From an uncultured bacterium (lineage in GTDB: Bacteria; Patescibacteriota; Patescibacteriia; CAIQCM01), in assembly GCA_963708045.1 (NCBI GenBank), contig OY970181.1, forward strand, positions 323,740 through 387,739: 64,000 bases of DNA, in the 5' to 3' direction. Under the pieces are notes generated by a model that was given only the letters and a program-made list of their open reading frames with translations, ran no database searches and was not told the origin of the DNA. This document shows, piece by piece, positions 3,288 to 63,826 of the stretch. Every line of letters starts with the position of its first letter. The first letter of the stretch is position 1. A program made the translations under genes and the position numbers.

Positions 3288-3451
3288 AAAACAATTTGTA
3301 TCGAGGGACTGAACAGGTCAACGCATTAGCGCGACCGACCTGCGTCAAACCCTCGAACGGAAAACAGTAACCTCACGGTTGCTGTTTTTGGTATCTATTT
3401 AATCCGTCATTGCGAGGAGGCCGAAGCCGACGCGGCAATCTCTTCTTTCCC

Positions 3452-3530
3452 CTCGCCCCACGCAGCGATAGCGGAGTGGGGAGAGGGTAGGCCTGCCCAG
3501 CGTAGCTTTAGCGGAGTTGGGGTGAGGGGC
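3452..3530. repeat. GC-rich imperfect tandem/hairpin repeat (units ...agcgatagcggagtgggg... / ...agctttagcggagttgggg...) between tRNA-Gly and the recombinase
   Basis: Seen directly; two about 40-nt related units with CCCC/GGGG hairpin ends. Confidence 0.6.
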
Positions 3531-3584
3531 CGTCGTTCGGCGATGACCAAAGAATAATATTATTCGAGCGAAGCGGTAGCGCAG

Positions 3585-4961
3585 TCAGAGAATTACCGAA
3601 ATCGTCAGTACTTTGTTTTTTAGCGTCAACCGGCTTTTCAAGTTCGTAAGCAACTCTCGTTTTTCGGTAATCGTCCCCTCGGTCAGCAAATAAGTTGCAT
3701 AAGCTCTAAGGTCAAAATTTTCTTTGGTCTTTTTATCCTCGCATTTCCCCAACGCAATCTTTCTAAACTTTTCGTACCTCGAAATCTCGGCAGCAAATTT
3801 ATGTTTTACCCCAATCTCATTCAAATCAAGTGTGTCGACGAGCTTCGTTAGCTGGTCAATTATTTCCTCCTCGCGCACATATCCGCATTGGCAATTTTTA
3901 TCTTTTGCTTTGGTACAACCGTAGTAAACATAGCGATGTGTTCCACCAGCTTTTTGCTCTTTGAATTTCTCGCAGGCGGTTACGCCCGACCCGCACAATC
4001 CGCAAGTAATGAGCTTCGTAAACGCGAACTCGCGATTGTTTTTGTTAATCTCGCTTCGGACAAGTTGCGCTTTAACCTTTTCAAAAAGCTCCGGCGTAAT
4101 AAGCGGCGTATGTTTGCCGGCATACCATTTTCCACTTCCGCGCGGATGTTCAAACACGCCGTAGTAAAAGGGATTCTTTAAAATAAGGTAAATATTTCCC
4201 AGCGCCAACGGCTTTCCATACTTGGTTTTAAAGTTAATATCGTATCGCAACCATTGATACAGTTTCCGCCCCGACCATCCATCGTTTCCGACTTTCTCAA
4301 ACATCTGCCGAACAATTGGCGCACGCACTGGATCAATTATCGCCTCGCACGGTTTATCTTTTATCTTCTCGTTCAAATATCCAGTCGGCGAAACCGCCGG
4401 ACGCAACCCCTGCTCGCATCGCGCCCTCATACCCCGCTTAACATTTTCGCTCTTGTTGTCATTTTCAAGCTTCGCTTGTGAGCAAAGGATCATCAGCATG
4501 AATTTCTCGCTCGGCGAGTTGGCGAATTTCTGGTTGAAAGTTCGTATCTCGATCAAGAGTTTTTGATCCATCAAATCGACCAGCGCCCCAAGGTCACCAG
4601 CATTCCGCGAAAGCCTGTCTGGTGCCCAAGTGATTATCCCACCAAACTTGCCCGCTCTGATGTCCTTGAGGAGCTCATTAAAGACCGGACGCTGGCCAAC
4701 CGCCTTGGCTGAATGGTTTTCTTTTCGAATCTCGGTTACTAGTAACCCCTCGCGCTCGGCAATCGCCAACATTTCTTTAATTTGGCTATCAATGGAAAGC
4801 ACCTGCATTTCCTCACTTTCGGTCGACTTCCGAGCGTATAGGCAATATCGGGTTTTAGGCATTATGGCGGCGTTTCCTTGGTTTTTGTCGTTCATACGAC
4901 CAAGTAATGCCGCAACCCTGTTGTGGCGTCTAGGCGGGGCTGTAGGTAAGTCCACTTTCAA
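3585..4961 (-). CDS. large serine recombinase (resolvase/integrase family with recombinase domain and zinc ribbon)
   Basis: N-terminal resolvase catalytic domain (YARKSTESE with catalytic Ser, DRLSRN), central recombinase domain, Cys-rich zinc ribbon (CGLCGSG...YYGCTKAKDKNCQCGY), C-terminal coiled region; probable true start at the internal Met (MPKTRYCLYARKS, about 4862). Confidence 0.85.
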   Translation of the reverse strand: MKVDLPTAPPRRHNRVAALLGRMNDKNQGNAAIMPKTRYCLYARKSTESEEMQVLSIDSQIKEMLAIAEREGLLVTEIRKENHSAKAVGQRPVFNELLKDIRAGKFGGIITWAPDRLSRNAGDLGALVDLMDQKLLIEIRTFNQKFANSPSEKFMLMILCSQAKLENDNKSENVKRGMRARCEQGLRPAVSPTGYLNEKIKDKPCEAIIDPVRAPIVRQMFEKVGNDGWSGRKLYQWLRYDINFKTKYGKPLALGNIYLILKNPFYYGVFEHPRGSGKWYAGKHTPLITPELFEKVKAQLVRSEINKNNREFAFTKLITCGLCGSGVTACEKFKEQKAGGTHRYVYYGCTKAKDKNCQCGYVREEEIIDQLTKLVDTLDLNEIGVKHKFAAEISRYEKFRKIALGKCEDKKTKENFDLRAYATYLLTEGTITEKRELLTNLKSRLTLKNKVLTISVIL

Positions 4962-5039
4962 AAATTAGCCCATTGAGCTATTCTTTAAGCACAACTTAAT
5001 ATTGCCTAAACCGCGCCGATGGCGAGGCATGGCAGAAAT

Positions 5040-5083
5040 CCCATGACAGATACTGAACCCCGCGTTTAGCGTCCTGTCATGGG
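5040..5083. repeat. inverted repeat/hairpin cccatgacag...ctgtcatggg upstream of the recombinase gene
   Basis: Perfect 10-bp arms seen in sequence; candidate recombination site or promoter element. Confidence 0.4.
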
Positions 5084-5133
5084 TAATATTCCGAAAGGAA
5101 TATTTGGCCGCAAGGCCTAGCTAGCGCGGGGCT

Positions 5134-12696: not shown

Positions 12697-13035
12697 ATGA
12701 ACAAGTTATTTGATCGCACGCCGATTGTCTGTGTCTGTGAAGTAAACTGTCGGATTGCCGTGGTTTTGGCCGACGACTTTTGGGCAGCCACAGTAAATTT
12801 TTGGAACAAGGTGAGAGCAGGTGATGAGGCATACGACGCCGCCGAGTTTAGGGCGTATTCAGGTCGCCTAATCCCGATCCCTGAAGGGCAAGTGGTTGTC
12901 TTTCAATGTGATGATCCGGAATATGGCGAACTTGCCAAGTGTTGTTTTGTGCAGCGGGCGACATTTGAGGTTCCGCTAATTACGCAAGAGAACAGGCAGG
13001 AGATCATTCGGCACATTTTCGGCCTTGATAAATAG
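12697..13035 (+). CDS. hypothetical protein (GC-rich)
   Basis: 112-aa ORF with upstream GGAAGGGGA RBS-like purine run; no motif recognised. Confidence 0.45.
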   Translation: MNKLFDRTPIVCVCEVNCRIAVVLADDFWAATVNFWNKVRAGDEAYDAAEFRAYSGRLIPIPEGQVVVFQCDDPEYGELAKCCFVQRATFEVPLITQENRQEIIRHIFGLDK

Positions 13036-13117: not shown

Positions 13118-13168
13118 CCCTCACCCGGCCTTCGGCCGCCCTCCCCCATTTTTGGGGGAGGGTAAAAT
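13118..13168. repeat. GC-rich double-hairpin element ccctcacccggccttcggccgccctcccccatttttgggggagggt
   Basis: Near-identical copy lies inside a coding region at 60948-61000; related hairpins of the form ccctccc-loop-gggaggg recur across the window. Confidence 0.7.
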
Positions 13169-14320
13169 GAATCCCTAATTTCAGCCATATTTTGATTATT
13201 ACCTTGGCTCTTGACGGATATTTTTGAATAGAGTATTATATCCACATTATCCACAGAGCCCGACATACTATGAGCAGTAACTTAACTCCTAATATGAAAG
13301 CCAGCGGCTAGCCGGATATTTTGTGTCCCAATGCCCGCTGGTTTGCCAGCGGTTTTCTTTTTAGAAAAATCAGTTCGGAAACTTTTTAGAGGGTGGCCCC
13401 TTACAAAAGATTCCGAAAACCTACTTCCGCGGAGGGCGGAAAGAGCAAGTCCGAATTTAGGAACGTTGACAACCAAGCAAAGAGTAATAAATGTAAGTAC
13501 GAATTTTGGTTTCCAAAAGAAATCAAAATTTCAGTTTTGTTAACGTACAAAACTGGAGCATCTAAAAATAACGTCAACGAATTTTTGTGGTTCTCGTCGC
13601 AATGGAGCAATCCAAAGCGACTACCGTCCTAGTATCAGACTGGGACGGATCCAGAATTCTCTGGAAGACATTAAGGGCGTACGGTGGATGCCTCGGCATG
13701 GAATGCCTATGAAGGACGTAGCAGCCTGCGATAAGTCACGGCGAGGTGGCAAGCAACCTTTGACCCGTGAATCTCCGAATGAGGAAACTCAATCCGATGG
13801 AAGATCGGATTATCTTGTGCTGAATATATAGGTACAAGAAGGGAACTCGGCGAAGTGAAACATCTCAGTAGCCGAAGGAAAAGAAAGAAAGGTGCAATTT
13901 TTATATCGCCTTTCGCGATTCACATGTCTTCGGATGTGTGTTCCGCGATCTGCGGTAAAAAGTTGTGCTCATTCCCCTAGTAGCGGCGAGCGAACGGGGA
14001 AGAGCTTAAACTCCAAAGTGTTAAGCATGAAAACGGGTGATATGTCGAAAGATGTGTTATCGCGTATCGTGTGGCGGTTGTAGGGCCTCATATACTATGG
14101 AGTGTTCAGACGTAAGCGTTGTTCGCCTGCATCGAACAAGCAAGGGTTACAAACGATATCTTCCCAAGCAGAACGGCCTGGAACGGCCGGCCATAGACGG
14201 TGACAGCCCGGTACGCGAATGGGGTTATCCCTTTGCAGTTTATGTTCTAGAGTAACACGGGACTCGTGAAATCCTGTGTGAAGTCGGGAGGACTTTCTCC
14301 CAAAGCTAAATACATTCCAC

Positions 14321-14360
<40 letters not shown>

Positions 14361-14980
14361 CAGCCCGGAAGGGCGATGAAAAGTATCTGAAACCGTATGC
14401 TTACAAGGAGTGAGAGTGGATAGCAATATCCATGATCGCGTTCCTATTGAAGAATGAGCCAACGAGTTTGCTGTATGTGGCAAAGTTTAAGCCCGAGAGG
14501 GCGTAGACGTAGTGAAAGCGAGCGTGAAAGCGCGTTCTCACTTATCAACTTTTGCGGTTTACCGCAGAAGTTGTTGAGTGAGTGAGTCGCATACACAAGA
14601 CCCGAAACCGGGTGATCTAGCCATGGCCAGGATGAAGTTTTACGAAAGTAAAATGGAAGTCCGAACACATAAGCTGTGCAACACTTTGTGATGAGCTGTG
14701 GCTGGCGGTGAAATTCCAATCGAACTCGGTAATAGCTGGTTCTCCCCGAAATAGCTTGAGGGCTAGCGTCGGTTAATAACTAATTGGTGGTAGAGCACTG
14801 AATGGGGAACGGTGGAGTGATCCTACGTTTCCCAACCAACCTCCGAATGCCAGTTAGTGTTCCCGACAGTCAGCACGTGGGGGCTAAGCTCCACGGTGCG
14901 CAACGGAAACAGCCGTTGATCTCCAACTAAGGACCTTAAATCTATGCTAAGTGGAAAAGGATGTGGAACGACTCAAACAA

Positions 14981-15011
<31 letters not shown>

Positions 15012-15818
15012 TAAAGAAAGCGTAACAGCTCACTGGTCGAGTTATTCTGCGCCGAAAATATACCGGGGCTAAGCATAGTTCCGAAGTTGAGGGTTCTATA
15101 ATTAACTTTATAGAGCGGTAGGGGAGTGTTTGAAACGCATTGAAGGCGAAGACGTGAGTCCCGCTGGAGTGTTTCGAAGTACGAATGTTGGCATGAGTAG
15201 CAAAAATTGATGTGAGAACCATCAACGCCGTAAGAGGAAGGTTTCCTGGGCAACGCAAATCGGCTCAGGGTGAGGCGATCCTAAGACGAGGCCGAAAGGC
15301 GTAGTCGATGGAAAAGCAGGTTAATATTCCTGCCCCTCAATGGGTCACTACCCAGACTGACGCATCAAAAATACACGGGCGCTCTTTGGTTATGCGCGTG
15401 TCTTAATTGGGCAACTGATTAGGACGCAGTCTGAACCGAAAGGGGAAGACAATCCGTGAATGTATGGTGCCCAGAAAACGTCTGGAGACTATCCTATTGA
15501 GTCCGTACCGTAAACCGACACAGGTCCTCGGGCACAAGTGTGCCAAGGCGGACGAGAGAAACATCGTTCAGGAACTAGGCAAAAAAGTGGCCGTAACTTC
15601 GGGATAAGGCCTGCCCTATCGCAAGATAGGGTCGCAGCGAGCGTCTATGAACCGACTGTTTATCAAAAACACAGGTCCCTGCTAAGTCGCAAGACGATGT
15701 ATAGGGGCTGATGCCTGGCCAGTGTCAGAACGTTAAGGGGAGATGTTGACTCCGCAAGGAGAAGGCATTGAACCGAAGCGCTGATGAACGCCGGCGGTAA
15801 CTATAACCGTCCTAAGGT

Positions 15819-16086
15819 GGACAACACTGCCTTAGTGAGGTAACAGACCTCCTTCGAACTTTGACTAGCCATTGTCAAAGAGGTAGAAGAAAATTTGGCT
15901 ATTTCGGTGAACCTCCTTGTTTAAAAACAAGGACAATACCGAGGCAACCTGCAATGTGCAGAGAGTCCGTAGAGACTACACGCCAAAGTTTAACAATTGG
16001 TTAAATAAGATATAGTCCGAACTGCTTAGTAATAAGCAGAGCGTGATTGAACACCACGCCATTACAAAGTGTAATGTAACAACAAG
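15819..16086 (+). ncRNA. group I intron in 23S rRNA (insertion after CCTAAGGT, E. coli position about 1917)
   Basis: Exon sequence CCTAAGGT | intron | AGCGTAATCCCTTGTCGGGTGAGTTCCGACC matches the uninterrupted 23S; 5' exon ends in T and intron ends in G; conserved group I core elements R (cagagagtccgtagagactacacgcc) and S (aagatatagtccgaac) are present; 268 nt, no ORF. Confidence 0.75.
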
Positions 16087-16369
16087 AGCGTAATCCCTTG
16101 TCGGGTGAGTTCCGACCCGCACGAATGGCATAACGAGTTCATAACTGTCTTGACGATGTACTCGGCGAAATTGCAAGTGGCGTGAAGATGCGCTGTACTC
16201 GCAGCTGGACGAAAAGACCCCGTGAAGCTTTACTACTCCTTGCCATTGGATCATGTTTACTTATGTTCAGCGTAGGTGGGAGCCGCAAGGCGCCAATGAG
16301 ACACCACCCTTATGTTGATATGATTCTTACTGCAAACCGTGAATCCGGTTAGCGGAACAGTGGCTGGAA

Positions 16370-16400
<31 letters not shown>

Positions 16401-16621
16401 CAGTAACGGAGGCGTTTACAAAGGTAGGCTTGGCTCGGATGGAAATCGAGCTCAAAGTGCAAACGCAGAAGCCTGCTTGACTGCGAGGGTGATGGCCCGA
16501 GCAGAGACGAAAGTCGAAGTTAGTGATCCGACGGTCCCTCAGAGGAGGGCCGAAGCTCAACAGACAAAAGCTACTCCGGGGATAACAGGCTGATCTTGCC
16601 CAAGAGTCCATATCGACGGCA

Positions 16622-16681
<60 letters not shown>

Positions 16682-16738
16682 TGGCTGTTCGCCAATTAAA
16701 GCGGTACGTGAGCTGGGTTCAGAACGTCGTGAGACAGT

Positions 16739-17114
16739 GAGAATACCCGCGCTGTCTAAAAATCAGATCCAAGTCGCAATTCACAAGATGCGAAAGGATT
16801 CCGGTGTTGTCGCAAGATAACACTGGAGCTAAATGCTGGAAAATCTGGTCCGATCTTCTTTGGAGAGAAGATCAAAGAACTCGCACTAGTCGCGCAAGCG
16901 ACTGACAACGTGACGAGCGCAGACAATCAGCAGGAAAGGTTCTTCCATTACACGTAGAACAATCAACAATGGAAAGAAAATCCTCAGAGACTACACGCCT
17001 GATAGCTAGAAACCCCTAGTGAAAGATATAGTCCGAACTCTATGGCGACATAGAGAGTGCATCAGAAATGATGCGCCGGTTCAAAATTTATTTTTTGAAT
17101 TCGCAACATAATTG
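16739..17114 (+). ncRNA. group I intron in 23S rRNA (insertion after GAGACAGT, E. coli position about 2593, the I-CreI-type site)
   Basis: Exon GTCGTGAGACAGT | intron | TCGGTCTCCTATCC; intron ends in G; R (cagagactacacgcc) and S (aagatatagtccgaac) elements shared with the first intron; 376 nt, no ORF. Confidence 0.75.
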
Positions 17115-17550
17115 TCGGTCTCCTATCCACTGCGAGCGTTGAAACTTGAAGGGATGCTTCCCTAGTACGAGAGGACCGGGAAGCACGAACCTCCCGTGTA
17201 CGTGTTGTCCTACCAAGGGCATGGCACGGTAGCGGAGTTCGGAGGCGATAAGCGCTGAAAGCATCTAAGCACGAAGCGCCCCCTAAGATTAGGTTTCGTT
17301 ATAGACTCCTCGGAGACGACGAGGTTGATAGGCAGTAGGTGTAAGGCCCGCAAGGGTTTGAGCCGAGCTGTACTAATCGGTCGAGTTCTCCAGGGAACTC
17401 TGGTAAAAAATCAGAGAACCACAAAAACGCGCTGAAGTTATTTCAGTTGCCGTACTTTACATTTAGTGAATATCGCGTCTTTTTTGATACGGTATTTGCG
17501 AACCAACGAGCGTAGCAGCGTCTTCGTTCTGTTATAAAATAAGTTCAGAG

Positions 17551-17670
17551 TCTTGGTGACCCAACCGCACTGGTCACACCCGTTCCCATCTCGAACACGG
17601 CAGTTAAGCAGTGCAGGGCTGATGATACTTGGGGCCAACCCGTCCCTGGGAAAGTAGGCCGTTGCCAAGA
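17551..17670 (+). rRNA. rrf: 5S rRNA
   Basis: TTGGTGACC...GGTCACACCCGTTCCCATCTCGAACACGGCAGTTAAGC...GGGAAAGTAGG...GCCAAGA; flanking processing stem aagttcagagtc/gaccctgaactt. Confidence 0.85.
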
Positions 17671-17784
17671 CCCTGAACTTATTAAAAAAATAACAGAAAA
17701 GAGACGCTGAAACGCTCTGCAAAATACCACCTGAAAGGGTGTTTTTTTGTTTCTTAAAACCCCCTTTGGTAAAAAGTCGCGAAA

Positions 17785-17950
17785 AATCTTAGCCCTCCCT
17801 TTGGTAAAAGGGAGGGTGGGGAGAGTTCTGTTTTATTACGTTAAAAATATTTACGGCGAAACGAACTCCCCCTACCCCCTCTTTTGCAAAGAGTGGGCTA
17901 AGACTGGTTACAGATTTCATGTCTACCAATGTGCAAAGAGAGGGCGAGGA
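17785..17950. repeat. composite hairpin repeat element, A-B unit, empty copy (A: cttagccctccctttggtaaaagggagggtggggagagttctgttttattacgtta; B: cgaacgaactccccctaccccctc...gactggtta...tgtgcaaagag)
   Basis: Copies at 17992-18058 (A), 18470-18658 (B then A) and, inverted, 53745-53890 (A-B). Confidence 0.7.
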
Positions 17951-17991
17951 TAAAATTCTCAAATACAATCTTTTTTACAAAGATAGTGACA

Positions 17992-18658
17992 AAGCCGTGA
18001 AAAATCTTAGCCCTCCCTTTGGTAAAAGGGAGGGTAGGGAGAGTTCTGTAATTAACGTTACTTTTTATTAGAATTATTTAAAATCCAATTATGTACTTCG
18101 CTTAAAACTCCGTCTAGATTTTTCATTATATCGTTGTTCCAAAATCTTAAAACCGTAATATTATTCAGTTTTAAATAATTCGTTCTTTCTTGATCATAAT
18201 CAACGCGCTCGGCGTGTCCTCCGCCATCCGCTTCAATAGCAAGAGAGAGCGCCGGACAATAAAAATCAAGAATATATTTTCCGACGCTATATTGCCGAAA
18301 AAATTTATAACCAAAAAATCGTTTTGCTCTTAGCTGTTGCCATAGTTCCTTTTCTGCCACCGTTTGGCTTTCGCGCAATGACTGTCTTAATGACTTTAGG
18401 GCAAGATTATTTTTAAACATAACTACAAATTAATTTTATCAAAAAGTAGGGCTGAAATATACTTAACAGCGAACGAACTCCCCCTACCCCCTCCCCGATG
18501 GCCATCGGGGAGGGGGCAAAGACTGGTTGCATCTTACAAGACTATCATTGTGCAAAGAGTAGCTAATGCGAAACAAAAAATCTTAGCCCTCCCTTTGGTA
18601 AAAGGGAGGGTAGGGAGAGTTCTGTTTTATTACGTTAATTTAAGCCATTATTTAGCGT
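17992..18658. mobile_element. A-B repeat element copy carrying a DUF559 ORF as an internal insert (candidate small selfish element, of which the other copies look like MITE derivatives)
   Basis: A unit ends ...gagagttctgtaattaacgtta at 18058; the DUF559 gene occupies 18058-18420; the B unit resumes at cgaacgaactccccctacc (about 18470). In the empty copy the same two points are only about 20 nt apart. Confidence 0.5.
18058..18420 (-). CDS. DUF559 domain protein (Vsr-like restriction-endonuclease fold)
   Basis: 120 aa; characteristic DUF559 C-terminal region (CPALSLAIEADGGGHAE...ERTNYLKLNNITVLRFWNNDIMKNLDGVLSEV). Confidence 0.7.
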   Translation of the reverse strand: MFKNNLALKSLRQSLRESQTVAEKELWQQLRAKRFFGYKFFRQYSVGKYILDFYCPALSLAIEADGGGHAERVDYDQERTNYLKLNNITVLRFWNNDIMKNLDGVLSEVHNWILNNSNKK

Positions 18659-20321: not shown

Positions 20322-20466
20322 CGACCACCACGCCCAACCCCACGGCGAATACAAAATAGTGGGGCGCATTCTCAAGCAGTTGATTATCTCTCTCTTCAAC
20401 CGCTTGATCGATGCGAGTTAAATCACATCATTGGAAAAGACGAGTTTTGACGCAAGTCACCATTCG

Positions 20467-20553
20467 TCTTCCCAATAAAGTTCGTGAATACCTTTTTTCC
20501 CTCCCCCAAGAATGGGGGAGGGCGAGGGCTGTCACGCACTTCATTGGGAAGAA
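20467..20553 (+). promoter_or_regulatory. conserved upstream element copy 1 (cttcccaataaagttcgtgaata...ccctcccccaagaatgggggaggg...cacttcattgggaag)
   Basis: Outer inverted repeat ttcccaat/attgggaa enclosing a CCCTCCCCC/GGGGGAGGG hairpin; copy 2 at 22047-22151; a degenerate third copy at about 23695. Confidence 0.55.
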
Positions 20554-20601
20554 ACAGAAAGTTCGTTGACTTGAAAACGTTAGAAAGAAAGGTAAAGGAA
20601 G

Positions 20602-22008: not shown

Positions 22009-22047
22009 GCGAGCGCTCTGATGGATCAAACCATCTCGCGCTCGCCT
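22009..22047 (+). terminator. terminator hairpin ggcgagcgc...gcgctcgcc after the lipoprotein gene
   Basis: 9-bp GC stem seen directly. Confidence 0.5.
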
Positions 22048-22151
22048 TCCCAATAAAGTTCATGAAACACCTTTTTTCCCTCCCCCAAGAATGGGGGAGG
22101 GTGCCCGAAAGGGTGGGAGAGGGTTGTCATGTACTTCATTGGGAAGAAAAG
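22047..22151 (+). promoter_or_regulatory. conserved upstream element copy 2
   Basis: About 85% identical to copy 1 with an extra internal hairpin (cccgaaagggtggg); ends 8 nt before the RBS of the next gene. Confidence 0.55.
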
Positions 22152-22159
22152 GAGAGTTC

Positions 22160-22403
22160 TATGAAAATTAAAAAACAAAAAACAAAGTGTCCGCGCAAAG
22201 TTTCGGATCCTGACTATTCGTGGAAACGCGATACAACGCTTTCGTTAAAACAGCGAATCAGCGAAGCGCGCCACGATGTTCATGATGCGATGGTCGCGAG
22301 CAATGAAGTTTTGCCCGACTCACTTGTATCCGCGTGGGCAACATTGAATCTTTTGCTCGGTCCGCTTTCACCAAGAAAGCGGCGTCAAGTCACAATTCAA
22401 TAA
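22160..22403 (+). CDS. hypothetical small basic protein
   Basis: MKIKKQKTKCPRK...; AAGGAGAG RBS; the longer 22062 start would translate the repeat element. Confidence 0.4.
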
Positions 22404-23554: not shown

Positions 23555-23834
23555 AGACGCAAGGTGGCAAGGTGGTCGCAAACAGGCAGAAGGGTTCGCC
23601 CTTCTGCCTGTTTTTCATATCGCGTCGCCCGTGGGGTTGACAAAATCTTCAATTTAGTGTAAGTTCTAATGTTCTTTAAAATCGCCATAAATGGCATATT
23701 TTTCCAATGAAGTTTATGAAACACCTGCCCCCTTATCGCTACCGCGATAAGCGGGTATAAGCGAGAAACCAGCGTGGTTTCGTAAATTTTTAGGGAAAGT
23801 ATCCCTATAGTCACCACAACCAAGGGGGAAAGTC

Positions 23835-26016: not shown

Positions 26017-27280
26017 ATGGTGAATATGGAAACAATTATTGACCTGCACATCCACTCAAAATATTCGCGCGCCTGCTCTAAACTTTTGGAGCCGGCCAAT
26101 TTGGCGCTTTGGGCCGACAAAAAAGGCATTAATGTTTTAGGAACCGGCGACTTTACACATCCGTCGTGGCTAAAAGAACTTAAAGAAAATTTGACCGAAG
26201 ACCAGTCTGGACTGTTTAAATTAAAAAACGGAAATGCCAAAGCGCGTTTTATGCTTACGACCGAGATTTCGTGCATTTATAAACGCGGCGGCAAAACGCG
26301 GCGCGTGCATAATTGCATTTTTGCACCGTCGTTTGCGGCTGTTGATTTAATTATTGCCGAACTTACAAAACGTAATTGCAATTTAAAGTCGGACGGACGT
26401 CCGATTGTTGGTTTGGACTCAGAAGAGCTCTTAAAGATTGTTCTTGAAGCCTCGCCAAATTGTATGCTCGTGCCGGCGCACGCCTGGACGCCGTGGTTTG
26501 CGATTTTTGGTTCTATGTCCGGTTTTGATTCGCTTGAAGAATGTTTTGGTGAAAATAAAAAACATATTTATGCCATTGAAACTGGTCTTTCGTCTGACCC
26601 GCTAATGAATTGGCGGCTTTCAAAACTGGACGACGTCCTGCTTGTCTCAAATTCCGACGCTCACTCGCTTGGCAACCTTGGCCGCGAGGCAAATGTTTTT
26701 GATATCGCGCCGGAAAAATTATCTTATGCGGAAATAATTAGAATTCTTCGCGAAAAAGATCGCAAGAAATTTTTGTACACGATAGAATTTTATCCCGAAG
26801 AGGGGATGTATCATTTTGATGGCCATCGCGTGTGCAAAAAAAGAATGCATCCTGAAGAAACGGCAAAAAATAACGGCCTTTGTCCGGTTTGCAAAAAACC
26901 GGTGACGGTCGGCGTGTATTCGCGTGTCGCCAAGCTCGCCGATCGCGTTCGAGGGGACGCGGCCGCCCGGAATGGTGCCGTTTAAAAGCATTGTGCCGCT
27001 AGACGAAATTATCGCCGAAGCGCTAGACCGCGGCGCGGCGACCAAAGGCGTGCAAACAATTTACGAACAAATGGTTGGCAGGATGCCAGAATTTAAAATT
27101 TTACTTCACGCTCCCTATGACGAGATTATGTCGTTTGCACCGCCTGATGTTGTTAGCGGAATAAAACGCGTGCGCGAAGGAAAGTTGCAAATAGAACCCG
27201 GCTATGACGGCGAATACGGAACCGTAAAAATTTTTTCCGATTCCGAAAGAAAGAAAATGGAACAAGCGAAGTTGGTGTAA
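26017..27280 (+). pseudogene. EndoQ-like PHP-domain endonuclease (TIGR00375-like), interrupted by a +1 frameshift near 26940-26985
   Basis: N-terminal ORF (26017-26985): DLHIHSKYS PHP motif, LVPAHAWTPW, CPVCKK...GVYSRVAKLADR zinc finger. C-terminal ORF (26924-27280, other frame): ...FEGTRPPGMVPFKSIVPLDEII...PGYDGEYGTVKIF. The two overlap by 62 nt. Confidence 0.6.
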
Positions 27281-27452
27281 TAACTAATATCTAATGTCTA
27301 ATACCTAATCCGTTGGCGTCATCCCGAGGAGTGAAGCGACGAGGGAGCTCAACGTCTCTAAGCAAGCTCCGTGATTCCTCGTCAAGACAAAGCGACTAGA
27401 CGGACTCAAAATGACGGCGGATTAGACATTAGACATTAGATATTAGGTATTA
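27281..27452. repeat. low-complexity palindromic intergenic element with ctaat-repeat arms (aatatctaatgtctaatacctaatccg ... cggattagacattagacattagatattaggtatt)
   Basis: Family members at 39785-39895, 54541-54678 (3' arm missing), 37836-37912 (tagagat-type), 61543-61600 and 62668-62732 (aactttt-type). Confidence 0.65.
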
Positions 27453-37833: not shown

Positions 37834-37917
37834 ATTAGAGATTGGAGATTAGAGATTGGAGATTAGAAGACGGTGGATGGCTTCAACATTCTAATTTCAA
37901 ATCTCTAATTTCTTTTT

Positions 37918-39776: not shown

Positions 39777-39931
39777 ATATTTGAATATCTAATGTCTAAT
39801 ATCTAATTTCTAATCCGACCAGCCGGAAACCCCGCGTCTCGGGGTGACGGCAACGGATTAGATATTAGGTATTAGTTATTAGATATTAAGTAATTATTAT
39901 ATCACAAAACCCCGACGCTGCGGGGTTTTGG

Positions 39932-40897: not shown

Positions 40898-40955
40898 AAT
40901 TTTATTTTTTAAACTAAACCCTAAACCATAAATCCTAGACCCTAACCTCTAACCC

Positions 40956-41816
40956 CTATTGATTTTCTGAAATAATTTTTCCGCCAAGCGTTCGGAGTTC
41001 GTTAAGCGCTTTTTCGGCTTGTTCGGCGTTAGGAATAATGCCGTGCCATTCAAATTTGTATTCCATAAAGTCCACGCCCTTGCCCGCGATGGTATGCGCG
41101 ATAATGCAGGTGGGACGATCTTCGGTTGCTTTGGCTTCTTCAATCGCTTCAACAAATTGTCGAATGTTGTGACCGCCAACTTCTATAACGCGCCAATTAA
41201 ACGCTTCGTATTTGGCTTTTAACGATTCAAGCGGCATTACTTTTTCGGTCGGCCCGTCAATTTGAATATTATTGCGGTCAATAATAACGGTTAAATTGGA
41301 AAGTTTGTAAGCGCCGGCAAAAAGCAAGGTTTCCCAAACAATGCCGCAGTCTTGTTCGCCGTCGCCCATCACGCAATAAGTGCGCCAGCTTTTGCCGTCC
41401 ATCCGCGCCGCATAAGCCATACCGGCGGCTTGGGCAATACCTTCGCCAAGGGGTCCTGAGGTTGTTTCAAGGCCGGGGAGGTGTAGGCGTTCCGGATGTC
41501 CCTGAAGCCGAGAACCAAATTTTCGGAGCGTGAGCAGTTCTTTAACGGGAAAATATCCAGCTTCGGCCATTGCTGCGTAACGAACCGGACAAATATGGCC
41601 AGCCGAAAGAATAAGGCGGTCACGTTCCGACCACTCTGGATTTTTTGGGTCGTGATTTAAAACGTGAAAATAAAAAGCCGCAAAAACGTCGGCCATGTCC
41701 AAAGGTCCCGCCGAGTGTCCGCTTCCGGCCGCAACCAGCATTTTAATAATGTCCTCGCGAATCGTGTTGGCCTTGGCTTCTATCGCAAGGACTTTTTTAT
41801 CGGTCAGATCAAACAT
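40956..41816 (-). CDS. transketolase, N-terminal subunit (TPP-binding)
   Basis: GDGEQDCGIVWE and HTIAGKG motifs; 286 aa. Confidence 0.8.
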   Translation of the reverse strand: MFDLTDKKVLAIEAKANTIREDIIKMLVAAGSGHSAGPLDMADVFAAFYFHVLNHDPKNPEWSERDRLILSAGHICPVRYAAMAEAGYFPVKELLTLRKFGSRLQGHPERLHLPGLETTSGPLGEGIAQAAGMAYAARMDGKSWRTYCVMGDGEQDCGIVWETLLFAGAYKLSNLTVIIDRNNIQIDGPTEKVMPLESLKAKYEAFNWRVIEVGGHNIRQFVEAIEEAKATEDRPTCIIAHTIAGKGVDFMEYKFEWHGIIPNAEQAEKALNELRTLGGKIISENQ

Positions 41817-47690: not shown

Positions 47691-48161
47691 ATCGCTAAGC
47701 CCTTGACAAAACTGTGGATAAGTGTTATACTACTTCTTGTAAGGATGAACGACCGCCAATAAATTGAAAATTTAGGGAGAGAGACCCAAGGCCAATGGGA
47801 AAAAATGGCCACCTGATTCAGGCATAAGCCTAATCAAAGGACGCATTTGTTGTTGTCTCTAAAGACGAATACAAATGCGTCCTTTTTATTTTCCACGGGC
47901 GACGTGCAACGTGCCACGTGCCAACTCGCGACGACAGATGAGGAGAGGGAACGCTTGAGCAAACTCGCCTTCGGCGATCAGGCTCGGTGCGGCGTAAGGT
48001 ATGATTTGAATCGGTCTAACTGATTCGCTTCAACCCCAAGCCATTAACGGTGCTCGCTCCGGCGAAACACCTTCATTCCCTTTCTAATCCGTCTTCGTGA
48101 AACATTGAAGTGATTTTCTACCGGCGACTTAGTCGTCGGGAACAGTTTTCGGGAGGGTCAA

Positions 48162-53744: not shown

Positions 53745-53890
53745 ATAATTCTGTGTCTGGAAAAATCTTTGCCCCCTCCCCGATGGCCATCGGGGAGGGG
53801 GTAGGGGGAGTTCGTTCCGTCCTAACGTAATAAAACAGAACCCTCCCGGCCTTCGGCCACCCTCCCTTTTACCAAAGGGAGGGGCTAGAT
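53745..53890. repeat. inverted copy of the A-B composite hairpin repeat element
   Basis: ccccctccccgatggccatcggggaggggg...gttcgttcc...aataaaacagaaccctcc...ccctcccttttaccaaagggaggg is the reverse complement of the 17785-17950 unit. Confidence 0.7.
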
Positions 53891-53995
53891 TTAGATTTTT
53901 AAAAAATTTGTGATCGTCTCCCATGCACAGGATGTTGTAAAATACCTAAAATGGGTCGTTGATGAACGGCAACAAACGCGTTAAGATGCCATAAT

Positions 53996-54538: not shown

Positions 54539-54681
54539 TATCCGAATACCTAATATCTAATTTCTAATACCTAATCCGTTGGCGTCATCCCGAAGAGCCG
54601 AAGCGATGAGGGAACTCAAAGTCTCTTAATATGCTCCGCGGTTCCTCGCCGAGCTGAGCTCGTCGGAATGACGGCTTAAAT

Positions 54682-55659
54682 ATGTTTCGTGAAATAATTG
54701 ATCAAAAAGAATGGAACGAATTGTATTCCCAGGCCATTTCGGCTTCGGGAAAATTTTTACAATCTTGGGAATGGGGCGAATTTCAAAAATCCTGCGACCG
54801 AAAAGTTTACCGACTCTCAAACGACGGCGCAATCGCTCAGATTATTGAATTGCCGTTGCCGTTTAATAAAAAATATTGGTTTTGTCCGAAAGGCCCTCTC
54901 ATGAACCATGAACCACGTACCATGAACAATACGTTTATTGATGAATTAAAAATATGCGCAAAAAAGGCGGGAGCGGTTTTTTTGTGTATTGAGCCAGCAG
55001 ACGTTATTGCTAGTGGAGGAAGTCAATCCCATGACAGAAGTCCAAGGGCGACAAGTATCGTTGATCTTACAAAATCCGAAGACGAGCTGCTTTCCGCAAT
55101 GCACCAAAAGACACGTTATAATATTAAAGTCGCCGCCAAGCACGGCGTCGTAGTTGGTTCATGGTCTCAGCCAAAGGCTGATCCGCCTCGGGCGGACATG
55201 GTTCATGGTTCATTTGATCACGTGTGGAATTTATTTTCAGAAACGGCGGCGCGCGATGGTTTTCACTTGCACCCGCGCGAATATTATGAAAGGCAGATTA
55301 AAATGCCGAACATTGAAGTGTTTATTGCCGAGTGTGAGGGAAAAATTCTAGCTGCGGCTGTTGTTATATTTTCTAACGGCGTTGCGACATATTTGCACGG
55401 TGCGTCGGCAGGCGAAATGCGTAATGTAATGGCGCCATACGCGCTGCATTGGGAAATTATAAAAAATGCCAAAGCGCGAGGTTCTATAAAATATGATCTT
55501 TGGGGAATTTCCGACGACCCCAAGTCTGGCTGGGCGGGGATCACTCGCTTTAAGCGCGGTTGGGGCGGGGTAGATTTTAGTGCACCCGGCACCTATGACT
55601 TGCCCGTAAGTCGTTTCTGGTATAGCGTTTACACGTTAGCACGCCGGTTGCGTTTTTAA
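54682..55659 (+). CDS. FemAB-family peptidoglycan-bridge peptidyltransferase carrying in-frame repeat insertions
   Basis: FemAB fold pattern (W..GWGGVDF..., KYDLWGI); ccatgaacc-type repeat at 54901-54930 and its inverse with an inner hairpin at 55156-55214. Confidence 0.65.
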   Translation: MFREIIDQKEWNELYSQAISASGKFLQSWEWGEFQKSCDRKVYRLSNDGAIAQIIELPLPFNKKYWFCPKGPLMNHEPRTMNNTFIDELKICAKKAGAVFLCIEPADVIASGGSQSHDRSPRATSIVDLTKSEDELLSAMHQKTRYNIKVAAKHGVVVGSWSQPKADPPRADMVHGSFDHVWNLFSETAARDGFHLHPREYYERQIKMPNIEVFIAECEGKILAAAVVIFSNGVATYLHGASAGEMRNVMAPYALHWEIIKNAKARGSIKYDLWGISDDPKSGWAGITRFKRGWGGVDFSAPGTYDLPVSRFWYSVYTLARRLRF

Positions 55660-60393: not shown

Positions 60394-61533
60394 CTAACGA
60401 GTGGAAAAAGCCCGTTTATACCCAGTTTGGGTAAGCTGGGCGGTTTTTGACCAAGAAAAGGTTTGCGCGCGGGCTTTTGCTGCCGATAAAATTGTCGTTT
60501 TATAGTCCGTTTCGGTCATTATTTTATGGTAGGCGTTTACAAAACCGCTAACGTCAGACGGATTTATGAGCGGAATGGTATTTCCCAACATTTCTCGCGA
60601 AGTATCAATTGCCGAAGCAATAACTGGAGTCTCGGCAAGGGCGGCCTCAAGCGGCGGCAAGCCAAAACCTTCAACTTGCGAAGTAAAAATAAGCGCGTTC
60701 GCGTTTTTGTATAAATTTCCAAGCTCGGCGTCGGAAACTAAGCCGACAAAATTAACGCGATTAAGATTATCGCCAATTATTTCTGCGGCTTGTTTTTTTA
60801 GTTGTTCGGCAAAAGCGGGGTCAGTGCCGGCGATGACAGTTGTTAGCTTTTGGTCGCTAGTCATTAGTTCTTTGGCAACCCTAAAGAATGTTTCCATATT
60901 CTTGTGCGGATAACCGGAACCAACGGACAAAATGTAGGGAGTGAGCGGATACCCCTCACCCGGCCTTCGGCCACCCTCCCCCATTTTTGGGGGAGGGTTA
61001 TAAGGAAATTGATCAACACCGTTTGGGGTGACGAATATTTTCTCTGGGGAGACTTTAATGTTCCGCAAGATGGAGTTTTTGGCGCTCTCGGAAACAGTGA
61101 ACACAATTTTTGCCCGCTTGGCATTTTCCGAAACAACAAAACGGTAGAAAAAATATTTAAACCAATATGCAATCGGGTTAAGGGTTGTAGAAGCAAGCGC
61201 TGGATGCTCCCAAAGAATCATATCGTGAATGGTAATGGCGAGTGGGGTTTTTAACCAAAGCGGCGCGTTCCAATGCGGTACGTGGATGAGGTCAAGTTTT
61301 TCTGCGTCAAAAATTTTTCCAAGTTTTGTTTGTTCGGCAAGCGTATACCAACGAATGTCGGTAATAATGGTTTTCATTTTTGGGGGCACCAAAACCGCGG
61401 CTTCTTTTCGCGTAAAGACCGTATATTCATTTTCGTTGTCTGATTCGGCAAGATGGGCGAGCAGTCGTTCCGCGTAGCGTCCGATACCGCGACTATTTGG
61501 CCCCATCAGGCGGGCGTCAATCCCTATTTTCAT
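60394..61533 (-). CDS. GT4-family glycosyltransferase containing an in-frame GC-rich hairpin repeat
   Basis: EGFGLPPLEAALAETPVIAS motif; residues FPYNPPPKMGEGGRRPGEGYPLTPYI are encoded by the 60948-61000 repeat. Confidence 0.75.
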   Translation of the reverse strand: MKIGIDARLMGPNSRGIGRYAERLLAHLAESDNENEYTVFTRKEAAVLVPPKMKTIITDIRWYTLAEQTKLGKIFDAEKLDLIHVPHWNAPLWLKTPLAITIHDMILWEHPALASTTLNPIAYWFKYFFYRFVVSENAKRAKIVFTVSESAKNSILRNIKVSPEKIFVTPNGVDQFPYNPPPKMGEGGRRPGEGYPLTPYILSVGSGYPHKNMETFFRVAKELMTSDQKLTTVIAGTDPAFAEQLKKQAAEIIGDNLNRVNFVGLVSDAELGNLYKNANALIFTSQVEGFGLPPLEAALAETPVIASAIDTSREMLGNTIPLINPSDVSGFVNAYHKIMTETDYKTTILSAAKARAQTFSWSKTAQLTQTGYKRAFSTR

Positions 61534-61591
61534 AACTTTTAACTTTTAACTTTTAACTTTTGATTGCTTCCTAAAAGTTAACAGTTAACAG

Positions 61592-62665
61592 TTAAAAGTT
61601 TTTTATTGTCTTCACCGTCTCTGCGGCGCATTTTTCCCATGAAAAATTTTTGACGCGCTCGTAACCACGGCTTATTAAAGTTTGTCGTAGATTGTTATCG
61701 CTCAAAACTTGATCAAGTGCTTCGGCAAAAGCGCCAGTGTCTCTTGGGTTTAAAAGAATTCCAGCGTCGTGAATAGTTTCTGGGAGAGCGCCGACCGACG
61801 AAGCAACGACGGGTACGCCAGCAGTCATTGCTTCTAGCGCGGGAAAGCCAAATCCTTCGTAAAATGAGGGAAAAAATAAGGCTCGCGCGTTTCGTAATAG
61901 TGCGCCTTTTTCTTCTTGAGTGACTTGACCGAGAAAGTGGATTCTGTCCGGGTGGTTCATGGTATATGGTACATGGTTCATTTGTCGTGGGCCGGCAAGG
62001 ACAAAATGGATGTCTTTGTTTTTTTGCGCGAGCAGGTTAAAGGCGGCTAAGGCCGTTTGAATATTTTTTCGCGGTTCAATAACGCCGAGGAAGAGGATGT
62101 AGGGGAAAGAGGGCGACATTCCGTGGGGATTGTGCAACGAAGATACAACCGGCGGCACGCCTGGCGGGATTACGGCGATTTTTTCCGTAGGGACTTTTAG
62201 TAGCTCGGTTAATTCGCGCGCCGTGTGACTAGAAAGGGTGATGATTTTGTCGGCGCGGGCAATTAATTTTTTTGTGTTAATTGCGCGGTGCCAAAGTCGC
62301 TCCTTTGCCGAATACCACGATGGATTAACTAAAAAAGAAAGATCGTGAACCGTTAAAATAACTCGTGCCGTTTTTTTAAACGACCAAAAATTAAGGTTGG
62401 GCAGCCAGACAGTTGGTGTTTCTAAATATTCATCAATTTTTGGATAATTTAAAAATGCGAGCGCGGCGTTTGCTAATTTACTGGGGAGAAATAATTTTTT
62501 GGTCGCGATTTTAAAATTTGGCGCGTGAGCGCGGAGCGAAACAAGGCCGCAAAATTGATTGGCGTCGTTTTGTTTTGTTAACTCAGAAATAAGCGGCGCG
62601 GCATACGCCGAAACGCCGCGGCTGGTTTTGTCTTGGAGCGAACGGAGGTCTATCCCTATACGCAT
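61592..62665 (-). CDS. GT4-family glycosyltransferase containing an in-frame ggttcatgg-type repeat
   Basis: EGFGFPALEAMTAGVPVVAS motif; QMNHVPYTMNHPDR encoded by 61953-61980. Confidence 0.75.
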   Translation of the reverse strand: MRIGIDLRSLQDKTSRGVSAYAAPLISELTKQNDANQFCGLVSLRAHAPNFKIATKKLFLPSKLANAALAFLNYPKIDEYLETPTVWLPNLNFWSFKKTARVILTVHDLSFLVNPSWYSAKERLWHRAINTKKLIARADKIITLSSHTARELTELLKVPTEKIAVIPPGVPPVVSSLHNPHGMSPSFPYILFLGVIEPRKNIQTALAAFNLLAQKNKDIHFVLAGPRQMNHVPYTMNHPDRIHFLGQVTQEEKGALLRNARALFFPSFYEGFGFPALEAMTAGVPVVASSVGALPETIHDAGILLNPRDTGAFAEALDQVLSDNNLRQTLISRGYERVKNFSWEKCAAETVKTIKNF

Positions 62666-62722
62666 AACTTTTAACTTTTAACTTTTAACTTTTGTTGCTT
62701 CCTAAAAGTTAACAGCTAACAG

Positions 62723-63826
62723 TTAAAAGTTGCCGTTAAATTTGGTATATTCCCTCTCCACAAACTCGGAAATATTTTTGTGAAAATTTTGCGTTGAAAA
62801 TTGTTCGGCGTGGTTTCTGATTGTCATCGCGTCGTACTTGCTCGCGTCAAAATTGAGCAAGCGGTCGGCCAGCGTTTCCCAATCTTGTTCATCAATTAAT
62901 TCGCCAGAAAGGCCGGGGATGACGGTTTCCAGAGCGCCGCCCGCGGCATACGCCAAAACCGGTCGTCCGGCCGCCATTGCTTCAACAACCGTGATGCCAA
63001 AGTCTTCTTCTTGCGGATTTATAAAGGCGAGGCAATTATTATAGAGTTCAATTTTTTCTTTGTCGGAAACCGCACCCAAAAATTCTACCGTGCCCTTGGC
63101 GCGATTTTTTAAATCATTAAGCGCTGGGCCATCGCCGAAAACTTTTAGCGGCAAGCCGAGCCGCGAGCAGGCGTCAACGGCAATGTCAAAACGTTTGTAA
63201 TTGACAACCCGTCCGCCGATTAAAAAATATTCGCCCGGTTTGCCCGTAATGGAAAATTTTTTAACATCAACCGGCGGATAAATTAGCGTGGAATCGCGAC
63301 GATAGTATTTGGAAATACGCCTGGCGACGGTTTTGGAATTGGCGATAAAACTGTCCACGCGATCGGCGGCAGCTTTGTCCCAAAGGCGCAGGTTGGGGAG
63401 GAGTGAGCGGACAACGGCTTTAACCAATGGGCCGTGGCGCAAGTCGGCGAGGTACGAGTGTGTGTCTGACCAAAGGTAGCGCGTCGGCGTATGGCAATAA
63501 CAAACGTGCAAAGTGTGGTCGCCTGTGATAACGCCTTTGGAAAAAGCCGAGGTTGAAGAAATAACCACGTCAAAAGCGGAGAGGTCAAAACTCTCCGTGG
63601 CTTTGGGCATGAGCGGCAAGAGCCATTGATAGTGAGCTACGCCGCCGGGAATTTTCTGGAGCCAGCTTGTGCGAATGTCTTTTCCTTTGAACATCGCGTT
63701 TGCTTTGTCCTTGTCGTTGAAAAGGACAAAGGTTGGCGCTTTGGGATAAAGATTTTGCAACTCAAAAAGAGTTCGTTCCGCCCCGCCGTCTTGTGCCAGA
63801 TAGTCGTGAATCAACGCTATTTTCAT
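62723..63826 (-). CDS. GT4-family glycosyltransferase
   Basis: EDFGITVVEAMAAGRPVLA motif. Confidence 0.75.
   Translation of the reverse strand: MKIALIHDYLAQDGGAERTLFELQNLYPKAPTFVLFNDKDKANAMFKGKDIRTSWLQKIPGGVAHYQWLLPLMPKATESFDLSAFDVVISSTSAFSKGVITGDHTLHVCYCHTPTRYLWSDTHSYLADLRHGPLVKAVVRSLLPNLRLWDKAAADRVDSFIANSKTVARRISKYYRRDSTLIYPPVDVKKFSITGKPGEYFLIGGRVVNYKRFDIAVDACSRLGLPLKVFGDGPALNDLKNRAKGTVEFLGAVSDKEKIELYNNCLAFINPQEEDFGITVVEAMAAGRPVLAYAAGGALETVIPGLSGELIDEQDWETLADRLLNFDASKYDAMTIRNHAEQFSTQNFHKNISEFVEREYTKFNGNF

Follow-up and report, generated by a model that had tools for sequence, protein, structure and literature searches.

A BoxC-like hairpin repeat lying in frame within a GT4 glycosyltransferase gene of a Patescibacteria-like bacterium

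Introduction

How does a GC-rich palindromic segment that recurs in an intergenic spacer come to stand inside an intact, conserved glycosyltransferase gene, and what would keep it there? The question is raised by a 64,000-nucleotide stretch of contig OY970181.1 (assembly GCA_963708045.1, positions 323,740 to 387,739; hereafter the window) from an uncultured bacterium of the Patescibacteriota, in which a 46-nt core element at 60953-60998 (CCCTCACCCGGCCTTCGGCC[A]CCCTCCCCCATTTTTGGGGGAGGGT) lies in frame within a minus-strand gene (60394..61533) for a GT4 glycosyltransferase of the GT-B fold. We consider it likely that this segment is a dispersed, non-coding GC-rich repeat of the BoxC/PIT/TMECO type, neutral or selfish in nature, which is tolerated in a permissive linker of the enzyme. 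Repeats of this type, also described as triplex-motif repeats, have gone without a known origin or function for some thirty years.

The repeat core and its copies in the window

The core recurs at 13118..13163, likewise on the minus strand, in an intergenic region between a terminator-like hairpin 3' of the open reading frame (ORF) 12697-13035 and the 23S rRNA gene at 13661. The two copies, separated by 47.8 kb, are identical at 45 of 46 positions, the unpaired loop and a mini-hairpin included, with a single A/G difference between them, and alignment of their flanks shows that the likeness ends at the core boundaries. When up to three mismatches are allowed, the core has exactly two sites in the window and none in 100 dinucleotide-preserving shuffles, and the hairpin CCCTCCCC..GGGGAGGG occurs six times against none expected. 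These counts confirm that the 46-nt segment is a real repeat and not a product of chance, as the initial annotation had held in proposing a repeat family with a near-identical intergenic copy at 13118. The sequence that it reported for the genic copy is indeed present, though its start position was one base off and the conserved core is 60953-60998. Its description as a double hairpin captures the hairpins, but the unit is a three-stem motif whose second loop holds a further small hairpin.

Read on the minus strand, the element is laid out as CCCTCCCCC-loop-GGGGGAGGG-[T GGCCGAAGGCC]-GGGTGAGGGG. Stems 1 and 2 (60974..60997; CCCTCCCCC plus A, the loop AAAA, and T plus GGGGGAGGG) make up a hairpin of 10-11 bp, the enlarged second loop (60962..60973) consists of T and the mini-hairpin GGCC-GAA-GGCC, and the third stem (60952..60961) is the arm that would be the third strand of a triplex. 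A looser survey, combining a hairpin census with the three-arm pattern, yields ten three-arm elements in the 64 kb, distributed over both strands. All follow one plan on the G-rich strand, in which a C-rich arm and its G-rich complement enclose a loop and, 0-12 nt further on, another G-rich arm comes close to repeating the earlier one. The mini-hairpin is an optional module of this plan, being present in the copy at 53841-53884 and absent from three otherwise near-identical copies; among the matches listed from our wider scans (see below), its GGCC and GCCC versions are both widespread. Since nine of the ten elements are intergenic and one is genic while ORFs make up about 75% of the window (P = 3e-5), genic copies would normally be lost, and selection would presumably remove those that land in ordinary coding sequence.

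Folding with ViennaRNA, which covers hairpins and G-quadruplexes only, brings the two hairpins together at -30 kcal/mol (z = -3.1; none of 200 shuffles folds as well), and as RNA each strand forms the pair of hairpins (about -30 kcal/mol; z = -3 to -4.6). Purine-motif triplexes are not formed in RNA, and for this reason only the hairpins would be relevant in the GT4 message. Two further candidate roles were considered and rejected. As regards a G-quadruplex switch, four G-tracts are present in the G-rich strand, but the hairpins prevail as long as the C-stem is there to pair (-30 kcal/mol, with no quadruplex in the minimum-free-energy structure), and a quadruplex is plausible for the short-spacer relatives only. 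As regards an intrinsic terminator, A-runs or mixed sequence lie 3' of the hairpin on both strands, and the copy at 13118 follows a separate, canonical terminator.

The insert occupies the inter-domain linker of the GT4 protein

The host ORF is intact (379 aa), and Pfam profiles place a Glyco_transf_4 domain at residues 16-174 and a Glycos_transf_1 domain at residues 199-346, with the EGFGLPPLEA motif and the other invariant columns retained. Between these domains the core encodes residues N179-G194 (NPPPKMGEGGRRPGEG), a Pro/Gly/Arg-rich run of 16 codons. The AlphaFold model of the protein, built with a 117-homolog alignment, has a mean pLDDT of 93.8 and a pTM of 0.91, and its sole low-confidence stretch (residues ~181-199, pLDDT about 45) falls between the strand 166-168, at the end of the N-domain, and the strand 200-204, at the start of the C-domain. 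As shown by this model, the insert is predicted to lie in the hinge between two Rossmann-like domains. The claim that the element is in frame within the GT4 gene is thus borne out by the intact ORF with Pfam GT4 domains on both sides, and the earlier guess of an inter-domain linker agrees with the low-confidence stretch between the domains.

The exact host protein has no record in the collection searched; the closest homolog on record is 77% identical, and the named GT4 homologs come from bins of the Patescibacteria group. A related peptide is found at the insert position in three of the 117 aligned homologs (P0001, P0003 and P0006, with 67-77% identity), and more than 110 of them are without the segment, in line with the expectation that the peptide would be missing from homologs. 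P0004 and P0005 (73-75% identity) have linkers that are 12 residues shorter and no insert, and in the distant homologs the linker is an ordinary one of comparable length. The two adjacent GT4 paralogs (61592-62665 and 62723-63826) are devoid of GC-rich hairpins whose stem reaches 8 bp.

Age and turnover of the linker site

We read the linker codons in the genes of the six closest homologs, P0001-P0006. Hairpin 1 begins at the same codon in the window gene, P0001, P0003 and P0006, and because three orthologs share it at this codon, the insertion would predate these species, being neither recent nor private to this genome. The proposed insertion into the GT4 gene hence stands with respect to the homologs without the segment, but not as an event of this genome only, as three of the six closest orthologs have the first hairpin. 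Among the four genes, hairpin 1 varies by two compensated exchanges, A-T to G-C at the stem top and C-G to T-A at the stem base, and by one G.U pair. After hairpin 1, the window gene has GGCCGAAGGCC, P0003 has GCCCGAAGGGC, P0006 has a 15-bp hairpin and then a third arm, and P0001 has a different 15-bp hairpin and no third arm. In P0002, the sister of P0001, that other hairpin stands alone, its loop inverted and four stem pairs compensated. This linker hairpin measures 13-15 bp in P0001 and P0002 (L001 1045-1095 and L005 995-1045), and its 8-nt loop is inverted between the two (TTCCAGCC against GGCTGGAA), a difference that suggests a small inversion, or 'flip', of a hairpin within coding sequence. 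In P0005, the linker is made up of (GGTCCAT)n.

At the protein level, peptides of the form PS[VA]GEG.. persist in the three orthologs, and after GEG the divergence is complete. Outside hairpin 1, the four-fold sites of the gene show a pairwise identity of 42-68%, and 22% of them are the same in all four orthologs. The genic copy in the window departs from the orthologous copies in the loop and in the second and third modules, and its 45/46 likeness to the non-coding copy of its own genome points to homogenization within the genome, by which gene conversion or re-insertion would keep the genic copy like its sisters. The linker site appears to have kept changing, with the frame preserved throughout.

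The element as a variant of the BoxC/PIT/TMECO family

The three-arm sequence is the same as that of an element found in the fabI-ycjD spacer of Escherichia coli K-12 (L248 11190-11430), which is a BoxC repeat, an assignment confirmed from the literature. BoxC repeats are reportedly treated by Bergler in 1992 and in the surveys of Bachellier. They are one with the PIT elements (Hoyne and Maher 2000) and with TMECO, a G/C-rich intrastrand triplex motif (Holder et al. 2015, PMC4666352). The TMECO pattern is 5'-CCCTCNCCC N3-6 GGGNGAGGG N3 GGGNGAGGG[GTC-], with TTA (type A) or CCG (type B) as second-loop types; the published search for it allowed loops of 1-6 nt and reported the pattern for 262 proteobacterial genomes (PMC4666352). 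The 23 copies in E. coli K-12 favor neither strand and are described as 'always located intergenically'. As single-stranded DNA the motif folds in vitro into a stable triplex of the purine-motif type, which was not detected in vivo; it showed neither promoter or terminator activity nor an effect on expression in E. coli, and local rearrangement is raised at the loci that contain it (PMC4666352). Copy number varies among strains, with 29 motifs reported for strain 55989 and one for IHE3034.

The full string of the window element, CCCTCCCCC AAAAAT GGGGGAGGG [12 nt] GGGTGAGGG G, can be set against this pattern module by module. Its C-rich stem CCCTCCCCC (complement of 60989-60997) fits the 9-nt CCCTCNCCC; the first loop AAAAAT is of 6 nt (its end bases being pairable) and thus within the 3-6 nt range; the stem GGGGGAGGG fits GGGNGAGGG, with nine of nine pairs formed; and the third stem GGGTGAGGG, followed by G, agrees with GGGNGAGGG[GTC-] and is identical to that of most of the 23 K-12 copies (PMC4666352 Table 1). 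The departure is in the second loop, which at 12 nt (T GGCCGAAGGCC, including a 4-bp hairpin) stands against the published 3 nt. When the third stem is laid antiparallel on stem 2, our own count gives eight of nine allowed purine-motif triads, viz., seven G.G-C and one T.A-T, with one mismatch (A on G-C), a triad count like that of the TMECO 'type A mm' that is commonest in E. coli. By this layout the element appears to be a BoxC/PIT/TMECO-type motif, i.e., a variant of an already described family with the second loop enlarged by a mini-hairpin. The published TMECO search would have missed it because its second loop is 12 nt. The length of this loop varies within the window as well, being 2 nt in the copies at 17793, 18011 and 18587 and 12 nt in that at 53841.

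The family is widely dispersed. A scan for the first hairpin over one genome per species recovers it, among the matches listed, as a multi-copy element in Gemmatimonadota, Chloroflexota, Alpha- and Gammaproteobacteria, Bacillota and others, and the matches listed have the same stem/stem/spacer/stem layout. A metagenome scan with the 27-nt module GGGGAGGG-Y-GSCCGAAGGSC-GGGWGAG finds it in at least 120 unrelated contigs with a GC content of 37-76%. Carriage by phages was rejected as a reading, as only two matches turned up in 2.9 million viral contigs. Rfam 15, searched both at gathering scores and permissively, has no family for the window element or for 14 loci from other phyla, the best E-value being ~1 on 60900-61050.

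The module is in frame in other genes as well. One case is an M1 aminopeptidase of a Paceibacterales-like bacterium, the closest homolog of which is 50% identical, where it lies just before the ERAP1_C domain (L212 8011-8037), and another is a 434-aa ORF with no Pfam match (L171 1700-1726), both on low-GC contigs. A third is a 1313-aa ORF (L239 7829-7855) on a contig of 63% GC, a composition at which a long ORF is weaker evidence of a gene; the stretch of this ORF around the module has, from the sequence alone, an intein-like look. The genic copies use at least three frames or strands, with the peptides GEGGRRPGEG, LSRPSATLP and TSPALRAPSP, which fits an element with no stop codon in five of its six frames rather than a selected peptide. 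On the plasmid pAQ6 of Picosynechococcus PCC 7002 (L261 22447-24042), five C5/G5 local-repeat hairpins lie inside an annotated DUF1156 gene that adjoins a DUF559 gene, and these may be another intragenic case.

Weighing the explanations

A copy of the dispersed repeat would persist in the GT4 gene at a permissive site, with five of its six frames open and a net length change that keeps the frame. The surrounding DNA would turn over fast, as is reported for TMECO loci in E. coli. The Rickettsia palindromic elements (RPEs), and the repetitive extragenic palindromic sequences (REPs) that are placed in flexible gene linkers, are precedents for such behavior. Several points weigh against this reading or limit its reach. 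No empty site closer than 73-77% protein identity was found from which to read the exact ends of the insert, any target duplication and the direction of transfer between the two window copies. To judge by the intact frame, the segment is presumably translated. In the M1 aminopeptidase, the element stands in place of a segment about as long as itself, and nothing is added. A scan of 20 ORFs of the window for a transposase found only a large serine recombinase and the DUF559 nuclease, and no HUH/RAYT or insertion-sequence (IS) enzyme; Holder et al. likewise saw no link of the motif to mobile elements (PMC4666352). Lastly, three of the five four-fold sites of hairpin 1 are identical in all four genes, against 22% elsewhere in the gene, a conservation which is not significant alone and which hints at nucleotide-level constraint or recent conversion; the hairpin 1 pattern could mean selection on structure, and gene conversion would look alike.

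The main rival takes up this last point. It holds that the hairpins are a selected mRNA feature, whereby the structure and an internal Shine-Dalgarno-like GGAGG at the domain boundary slow the ribosome to allow folding of the N-domain, or else protect the message. The structure is predicted to fold at about -30 kcal/mol, which a ribosome would have to melt in a message where only the two hairpins form. A strong hairpin or palindrome of one kind or another, albeit not the same one, is found at this position in six of seven clade members, and compensated differences are seen both in hairpin 1 (two, besides the G.U) and in the P0001/P0002 hairpin (four pairs). However, replacement by other members of a family of perfect palindromes would also give compensated differences, P0004 manages with a short linker and no evident hairpin, and the neighboring GT4 paralogs are without a GC-rich hairpin. 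The distant homologs, moreover, have an ordinary linker, the element is mostly intergenic and occurs in either orientation, and PIT/TMECO elements have no expression effect in E. coli (PMC4666352). We consider selection on the message to be unlikely on this balance.

Similarly unlikely, in our assessment, is the co-option of the Pro/Gly/Arg-rich loop at the protein level, by which a longer flexible hinge would improve the domain movement of the GT-B fold. The insert does restore the linker to about the length seen in distant homologs, the close relatives without it being ~12 residues shorter, and the PS[VA]GEG.. peptides have been kept in three orthologs at 67-77% identity. Nevertheless, the peptide after GEG is wholly different among these orthologs, the segment is modeled with a pLDDT of about 45, other clade members manage without it, and its sequence is set by the DNA repeat, as seen in the 45/46 identity with a non-coding copy, and not by conservation of the protein.

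We give only a very small probability to an origin in place, in which template switching or slippage on a native Pro-rich linker made the palindrome and its likeness to the repeat is convergent. P0004 does have PSV where stem 1 and loop 1 encode PSV in P0003 and P0006, and the site also gathers heptamer slippage products; however, the Ser codons of these PSV peptides are of different classes (TCG versus AGT), the 45/46 identity with a copy 47.8 kb away spans the loop and the mini-hairpin with dissimilar flanks, and the 27-nt module is found in at least 120 unrelated contigs. Least probable of all is an assembly chimera or an insertion-inactivated pseudogene, for which the uncultured-type CPR-like (candidate phyla radiation) source and the lack of a record of the exact protein in the collection searched might speak, but against which stand a frame intact over 379 codons, conserved catalytic motifs, and a homologous in-frame insert in independent assemblies from four other samples.

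Association of the repeats with DUF559 nucleases

With a dispersed repeat tolerated in the linker as the preferred reading, the best lead on how its elements are copied is the presence of DUF559 genes between hairpin pairs. The window has three copies of a ~150-nt inverted hairpin pair (within 17782-18640, and at 53766-53892), one of which (18000-18560) contains a gene while the other two are 'empty'. The gene (18058..18420, minus strand) lies in the spacer of the pair and codes for a 120-aa DUF559 protein, a Vsr-like PD-(D/E)XK nuclease (Pfam PF04480, E = 1e-34). The left arm of the pair is the family member at 18011..18043 on the plus strand, and its right arm is that at 18480..18516 on the minus strand (CCCCCTCCCC GATGGCCATC GGGGAGGGGG TAGGGGGAG). 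When the ORFs around 241 element loci were clustered all-against-all, the largest clusters were common signaling families, and DUF559 was the only small family to recur next to the element, its genes being bracketed by BoxC/TM-like hairpins in ten of these 241 element-selected loci (L033, L044, L073 and L224 among them). Distance statistics within these element-selected loci, many of which are on short contigs, are marginal (our own Fisher combination gives p about 0.06).

In a reciprocal test, ten DUF559 loci from ten genera (among L250-L262) were picked by protein similarity alone. In each of the ten the gene is bracketed by BoxC/TM-like hairpins, with C-arm/G-arm hairpins no more than 300 nt away from the ORF; these number 24 in 6 kb, as compared with ten in the other 10 kb. 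Perfect 9-bp hairpins occur just twice in 49 kb of Deinococcus aetherius, namely 16 nt before the start codon of the DUF559 gene and 1 nt after its stop. In E. coli, the stop codon of ycjD is within a degenerate BoxC arm, which is followed by a duplicated 3' fragment of ycjD and by TMECO number 9. ycjD is present in 3378 of 5426 complete E. coli genomes (62%), and elsewhere the K-12 arrangement breaks off near BoxC. A search for DUF559 fragments beside the other E. coli BoxC copies found none, there being at most two places per genome, both at ycjD.

This link, a positional one only, could mean that the nuclease mobilizes the hairpins, that its gene homes into them, or that both collect in the same spacers. 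We tentatively suggest, as a possibility less likely than not, that BoxC/PIT repeats are the ends or preferred targets of small mobile DUF559 cassettes, organized like REPtrons with another enzyme class and spread from E. coli to Deinococcus, cyanobacteria, Chloroflexota and CPR bacteria. The gene-less hairpins, the GT4 copy included, would then be non-autonomous copies that are spread or reshuffled by nuclease-triggered repair, and their pile-up at the linker would reflect hairpin-targeted cutting as opposed to mere tolerance. We know of no transposition activity for DUF559, and our search of the literature for a link between DUF559 and repeats found none.

Other family members and repeats of the window

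The remaining members of the family in the window comprise several variants. The one at 17793..17825 (plus strand; CCCTCCC TTTGGTAAA AGGGAGGG T GGGGAGAG) is without the mini-hairpin and is part of composite unit 1, a further copy of this type is at 18587..18619 (plus strand), and the copy at 53841..53884 (minus strand) is of the same type with the GGCCGAAGGCC mini-hairpin added. The member at 53772..53808 (plus strand) is an inverted copy of that at 18480-18516 (52 nt, 100% complementary). On the plus strand, the member at 20499..20530 has a short third arm, and that at 22078..22125 has a GCCCGAAAGGGT mini-hairpin and the third arm GGGAGAGGG. The former is nested in a ~105-nt repeat, which is seen at 20464-20569 and 22042-22164 (and in part at 23701-23726) and in which an outer inverted repeat CTTCCCAATAAAGT ... 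ACTTCATTGGGAAG surrounds the triplex-motif hairpin. This repeat lies directly upstream of genes for hypothetical secreted or membrane proteins and could be a structured leader or a nested insertion.

Tandem heptamer arrays (ATTAGNT, TAACTTT, CTAAACC, CCACGTG) are also frequent in the window (27278-27452, 37834-37867, 39784-39900, 40914-40958, 47893-47923, 54545-54575, 61533-61600 and 62665-62731), often paired in inverted orientation such that long AT-rich hairpins arise between genes, e.g., those separating the three GT4 genes. A (CATGAAC)x4 array at 54900-54927 lies in frame in the FemAB-family ORF 54682-55659 (peptide MNHEPRTMN) and is probably the 'first' in-frame repeat family to which the initial annotation alluded. 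Related (GGTCCAT)n and (GGTTCAT)n arrays are present in the GT4 linker of the ortholog P0005 and in the glycosyltransferase gene upstream of P0003 (L006 about 692-730; L002 about 711-745).

Elsewhere in the window, the 23S rRNA gene (13661-17395) is split by two group I introns (15809-16039 and 16729-17055), is bracketed by a 30-nt inverted repeat (13566-13595 / 17414-17443) like a processing stem, and is followed by the 5S gene (17552-17670); no 16S gene was found upstream of it in the window. A tRNA-Gly (3213-3287), the large serine recombinase (3585-4961, minus strand) and a LOOT RNA (5003-5118) are adjacent to each other and are followed by two Lcl_C-domain genes, and the region 3213-5118 could be the edge of an integrated element. 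The two introns in the 23S gene and the LOOT RNA, together with the Patescibacteria-group bins of the named GT4 homologs, give the window the look of a CPR/Patescibacteria genome.

Significance

These observations extend both the BoxC/triplex-motif repeats and in-frame palindromic repeats to a CPR-type genome of the ultra-small kind, in which pressure is thought to act on every kilobase. In-frame palindromic behavior as such has precedents; new in detail are the host, the placement within a gene, and the turnover seen at a single codon. The second loop of the family is modular, and published searches would miss such variants. Inserts of this kind would inflate or distort protein families predicted from metagenomes, by way of Pro/Gly/Arg-rich 'linkers' such as GEGGRRPGEG and LSRPSATLP. 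The part most worth following is the DUF559 association, which, if true, would offer a testable answer to the origin of BoxC-type repeats and to the instability of the loci that carry them, as well as a biological role for DUF559, a widespread uncharacterized nuclease family.

Comparison with known systems

Our search of the literature on CPR bacteria and in-frame repeats found nothing relevant, and one made with the raw sequence of the element brought up eukaryotic noise alone. The inverted pair around the DUF559 gene is like REPtrons and REPINs (RAYT genes flanked by REPs) in having a small nuclease gene between inverted copies of a dispersed hairpin, with many gene-less copies elsewhere. 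It differs from them in that DUF559 is a Vsr-like PD-(D/E)XK nuclease and not an HUH/Y1 transposase, and in that the link is statistical and positional. In-frame bacterial miniature inverted-repeat transposable elements and their like (QMITE1 of Coxiella, intragenic ERIC, BOX; PMC10969869, PMC5896051) are comparable as small non-autonomous elements that form in-frame fusions with host ORFs, whereas the two window copies appear to be without IS-type terminal inverted repeats or a recognizable target-site duplication, and no direct repeat shared by their flanks was seen.

Intragenic REPs of the GTAG/CGTC type (Di Nocera et al. 2013, PMC3733652) share with the element the form of short GC-rich stem-loops that are mostly extragenic, with a minority within ORFs. 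Those within ORFs have been suggested to be neutral on account of their placement in linkers or loops, and different REPs are found near the same recB site in two Xanthomonas species (PMC3733652). The window element, by contrast, has a third stem, and no RAYT transposase is present in the window. There is no GTAG/CGTC tag at its stem, the flanks being gata|CCCC...GGGT|tata and aaaaa|CCC...GGGT|aaaa; some relatives end in ..GGGCTGTC, but without the A/T first pairs described for CGTC REPs (PMC3733652).

The RPEs (PMC10969869, PMC3733652) offer a likeness in behavior, as palindromes that stand in frame in unrelated, apparently functional genes at positions compatible with the fold, and that also occur between genes. 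They are, however, ~100-150 bp long, restricted to Rickettsia, and have a conserved peptide for each family (Ogata et al. 2000, 2002; Claverie and Ogata 2003), whereas the window element, at 46 nt, is part of a family that spans phyla and has one genic copy among ten in the window, such that it would be RPE-like in behavior and not a member.

The closest likeness is to the BoxC/PIT/TMECO elements, with which it shares the stem sequences, a first loop of 3-6 nt, inverted pairs and unstable neighboring DNA, and probably, to judge by the ten copies on both strands of the window, dispersal in multiple copies without strand bias, as well as the lack of an Rfam family or a known function. It differs from them in its CPR/Patescibacteria-like host of about 46% GC, and in having a genic, in-frame copy as against the intergenic copies of E. 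coli K-12.

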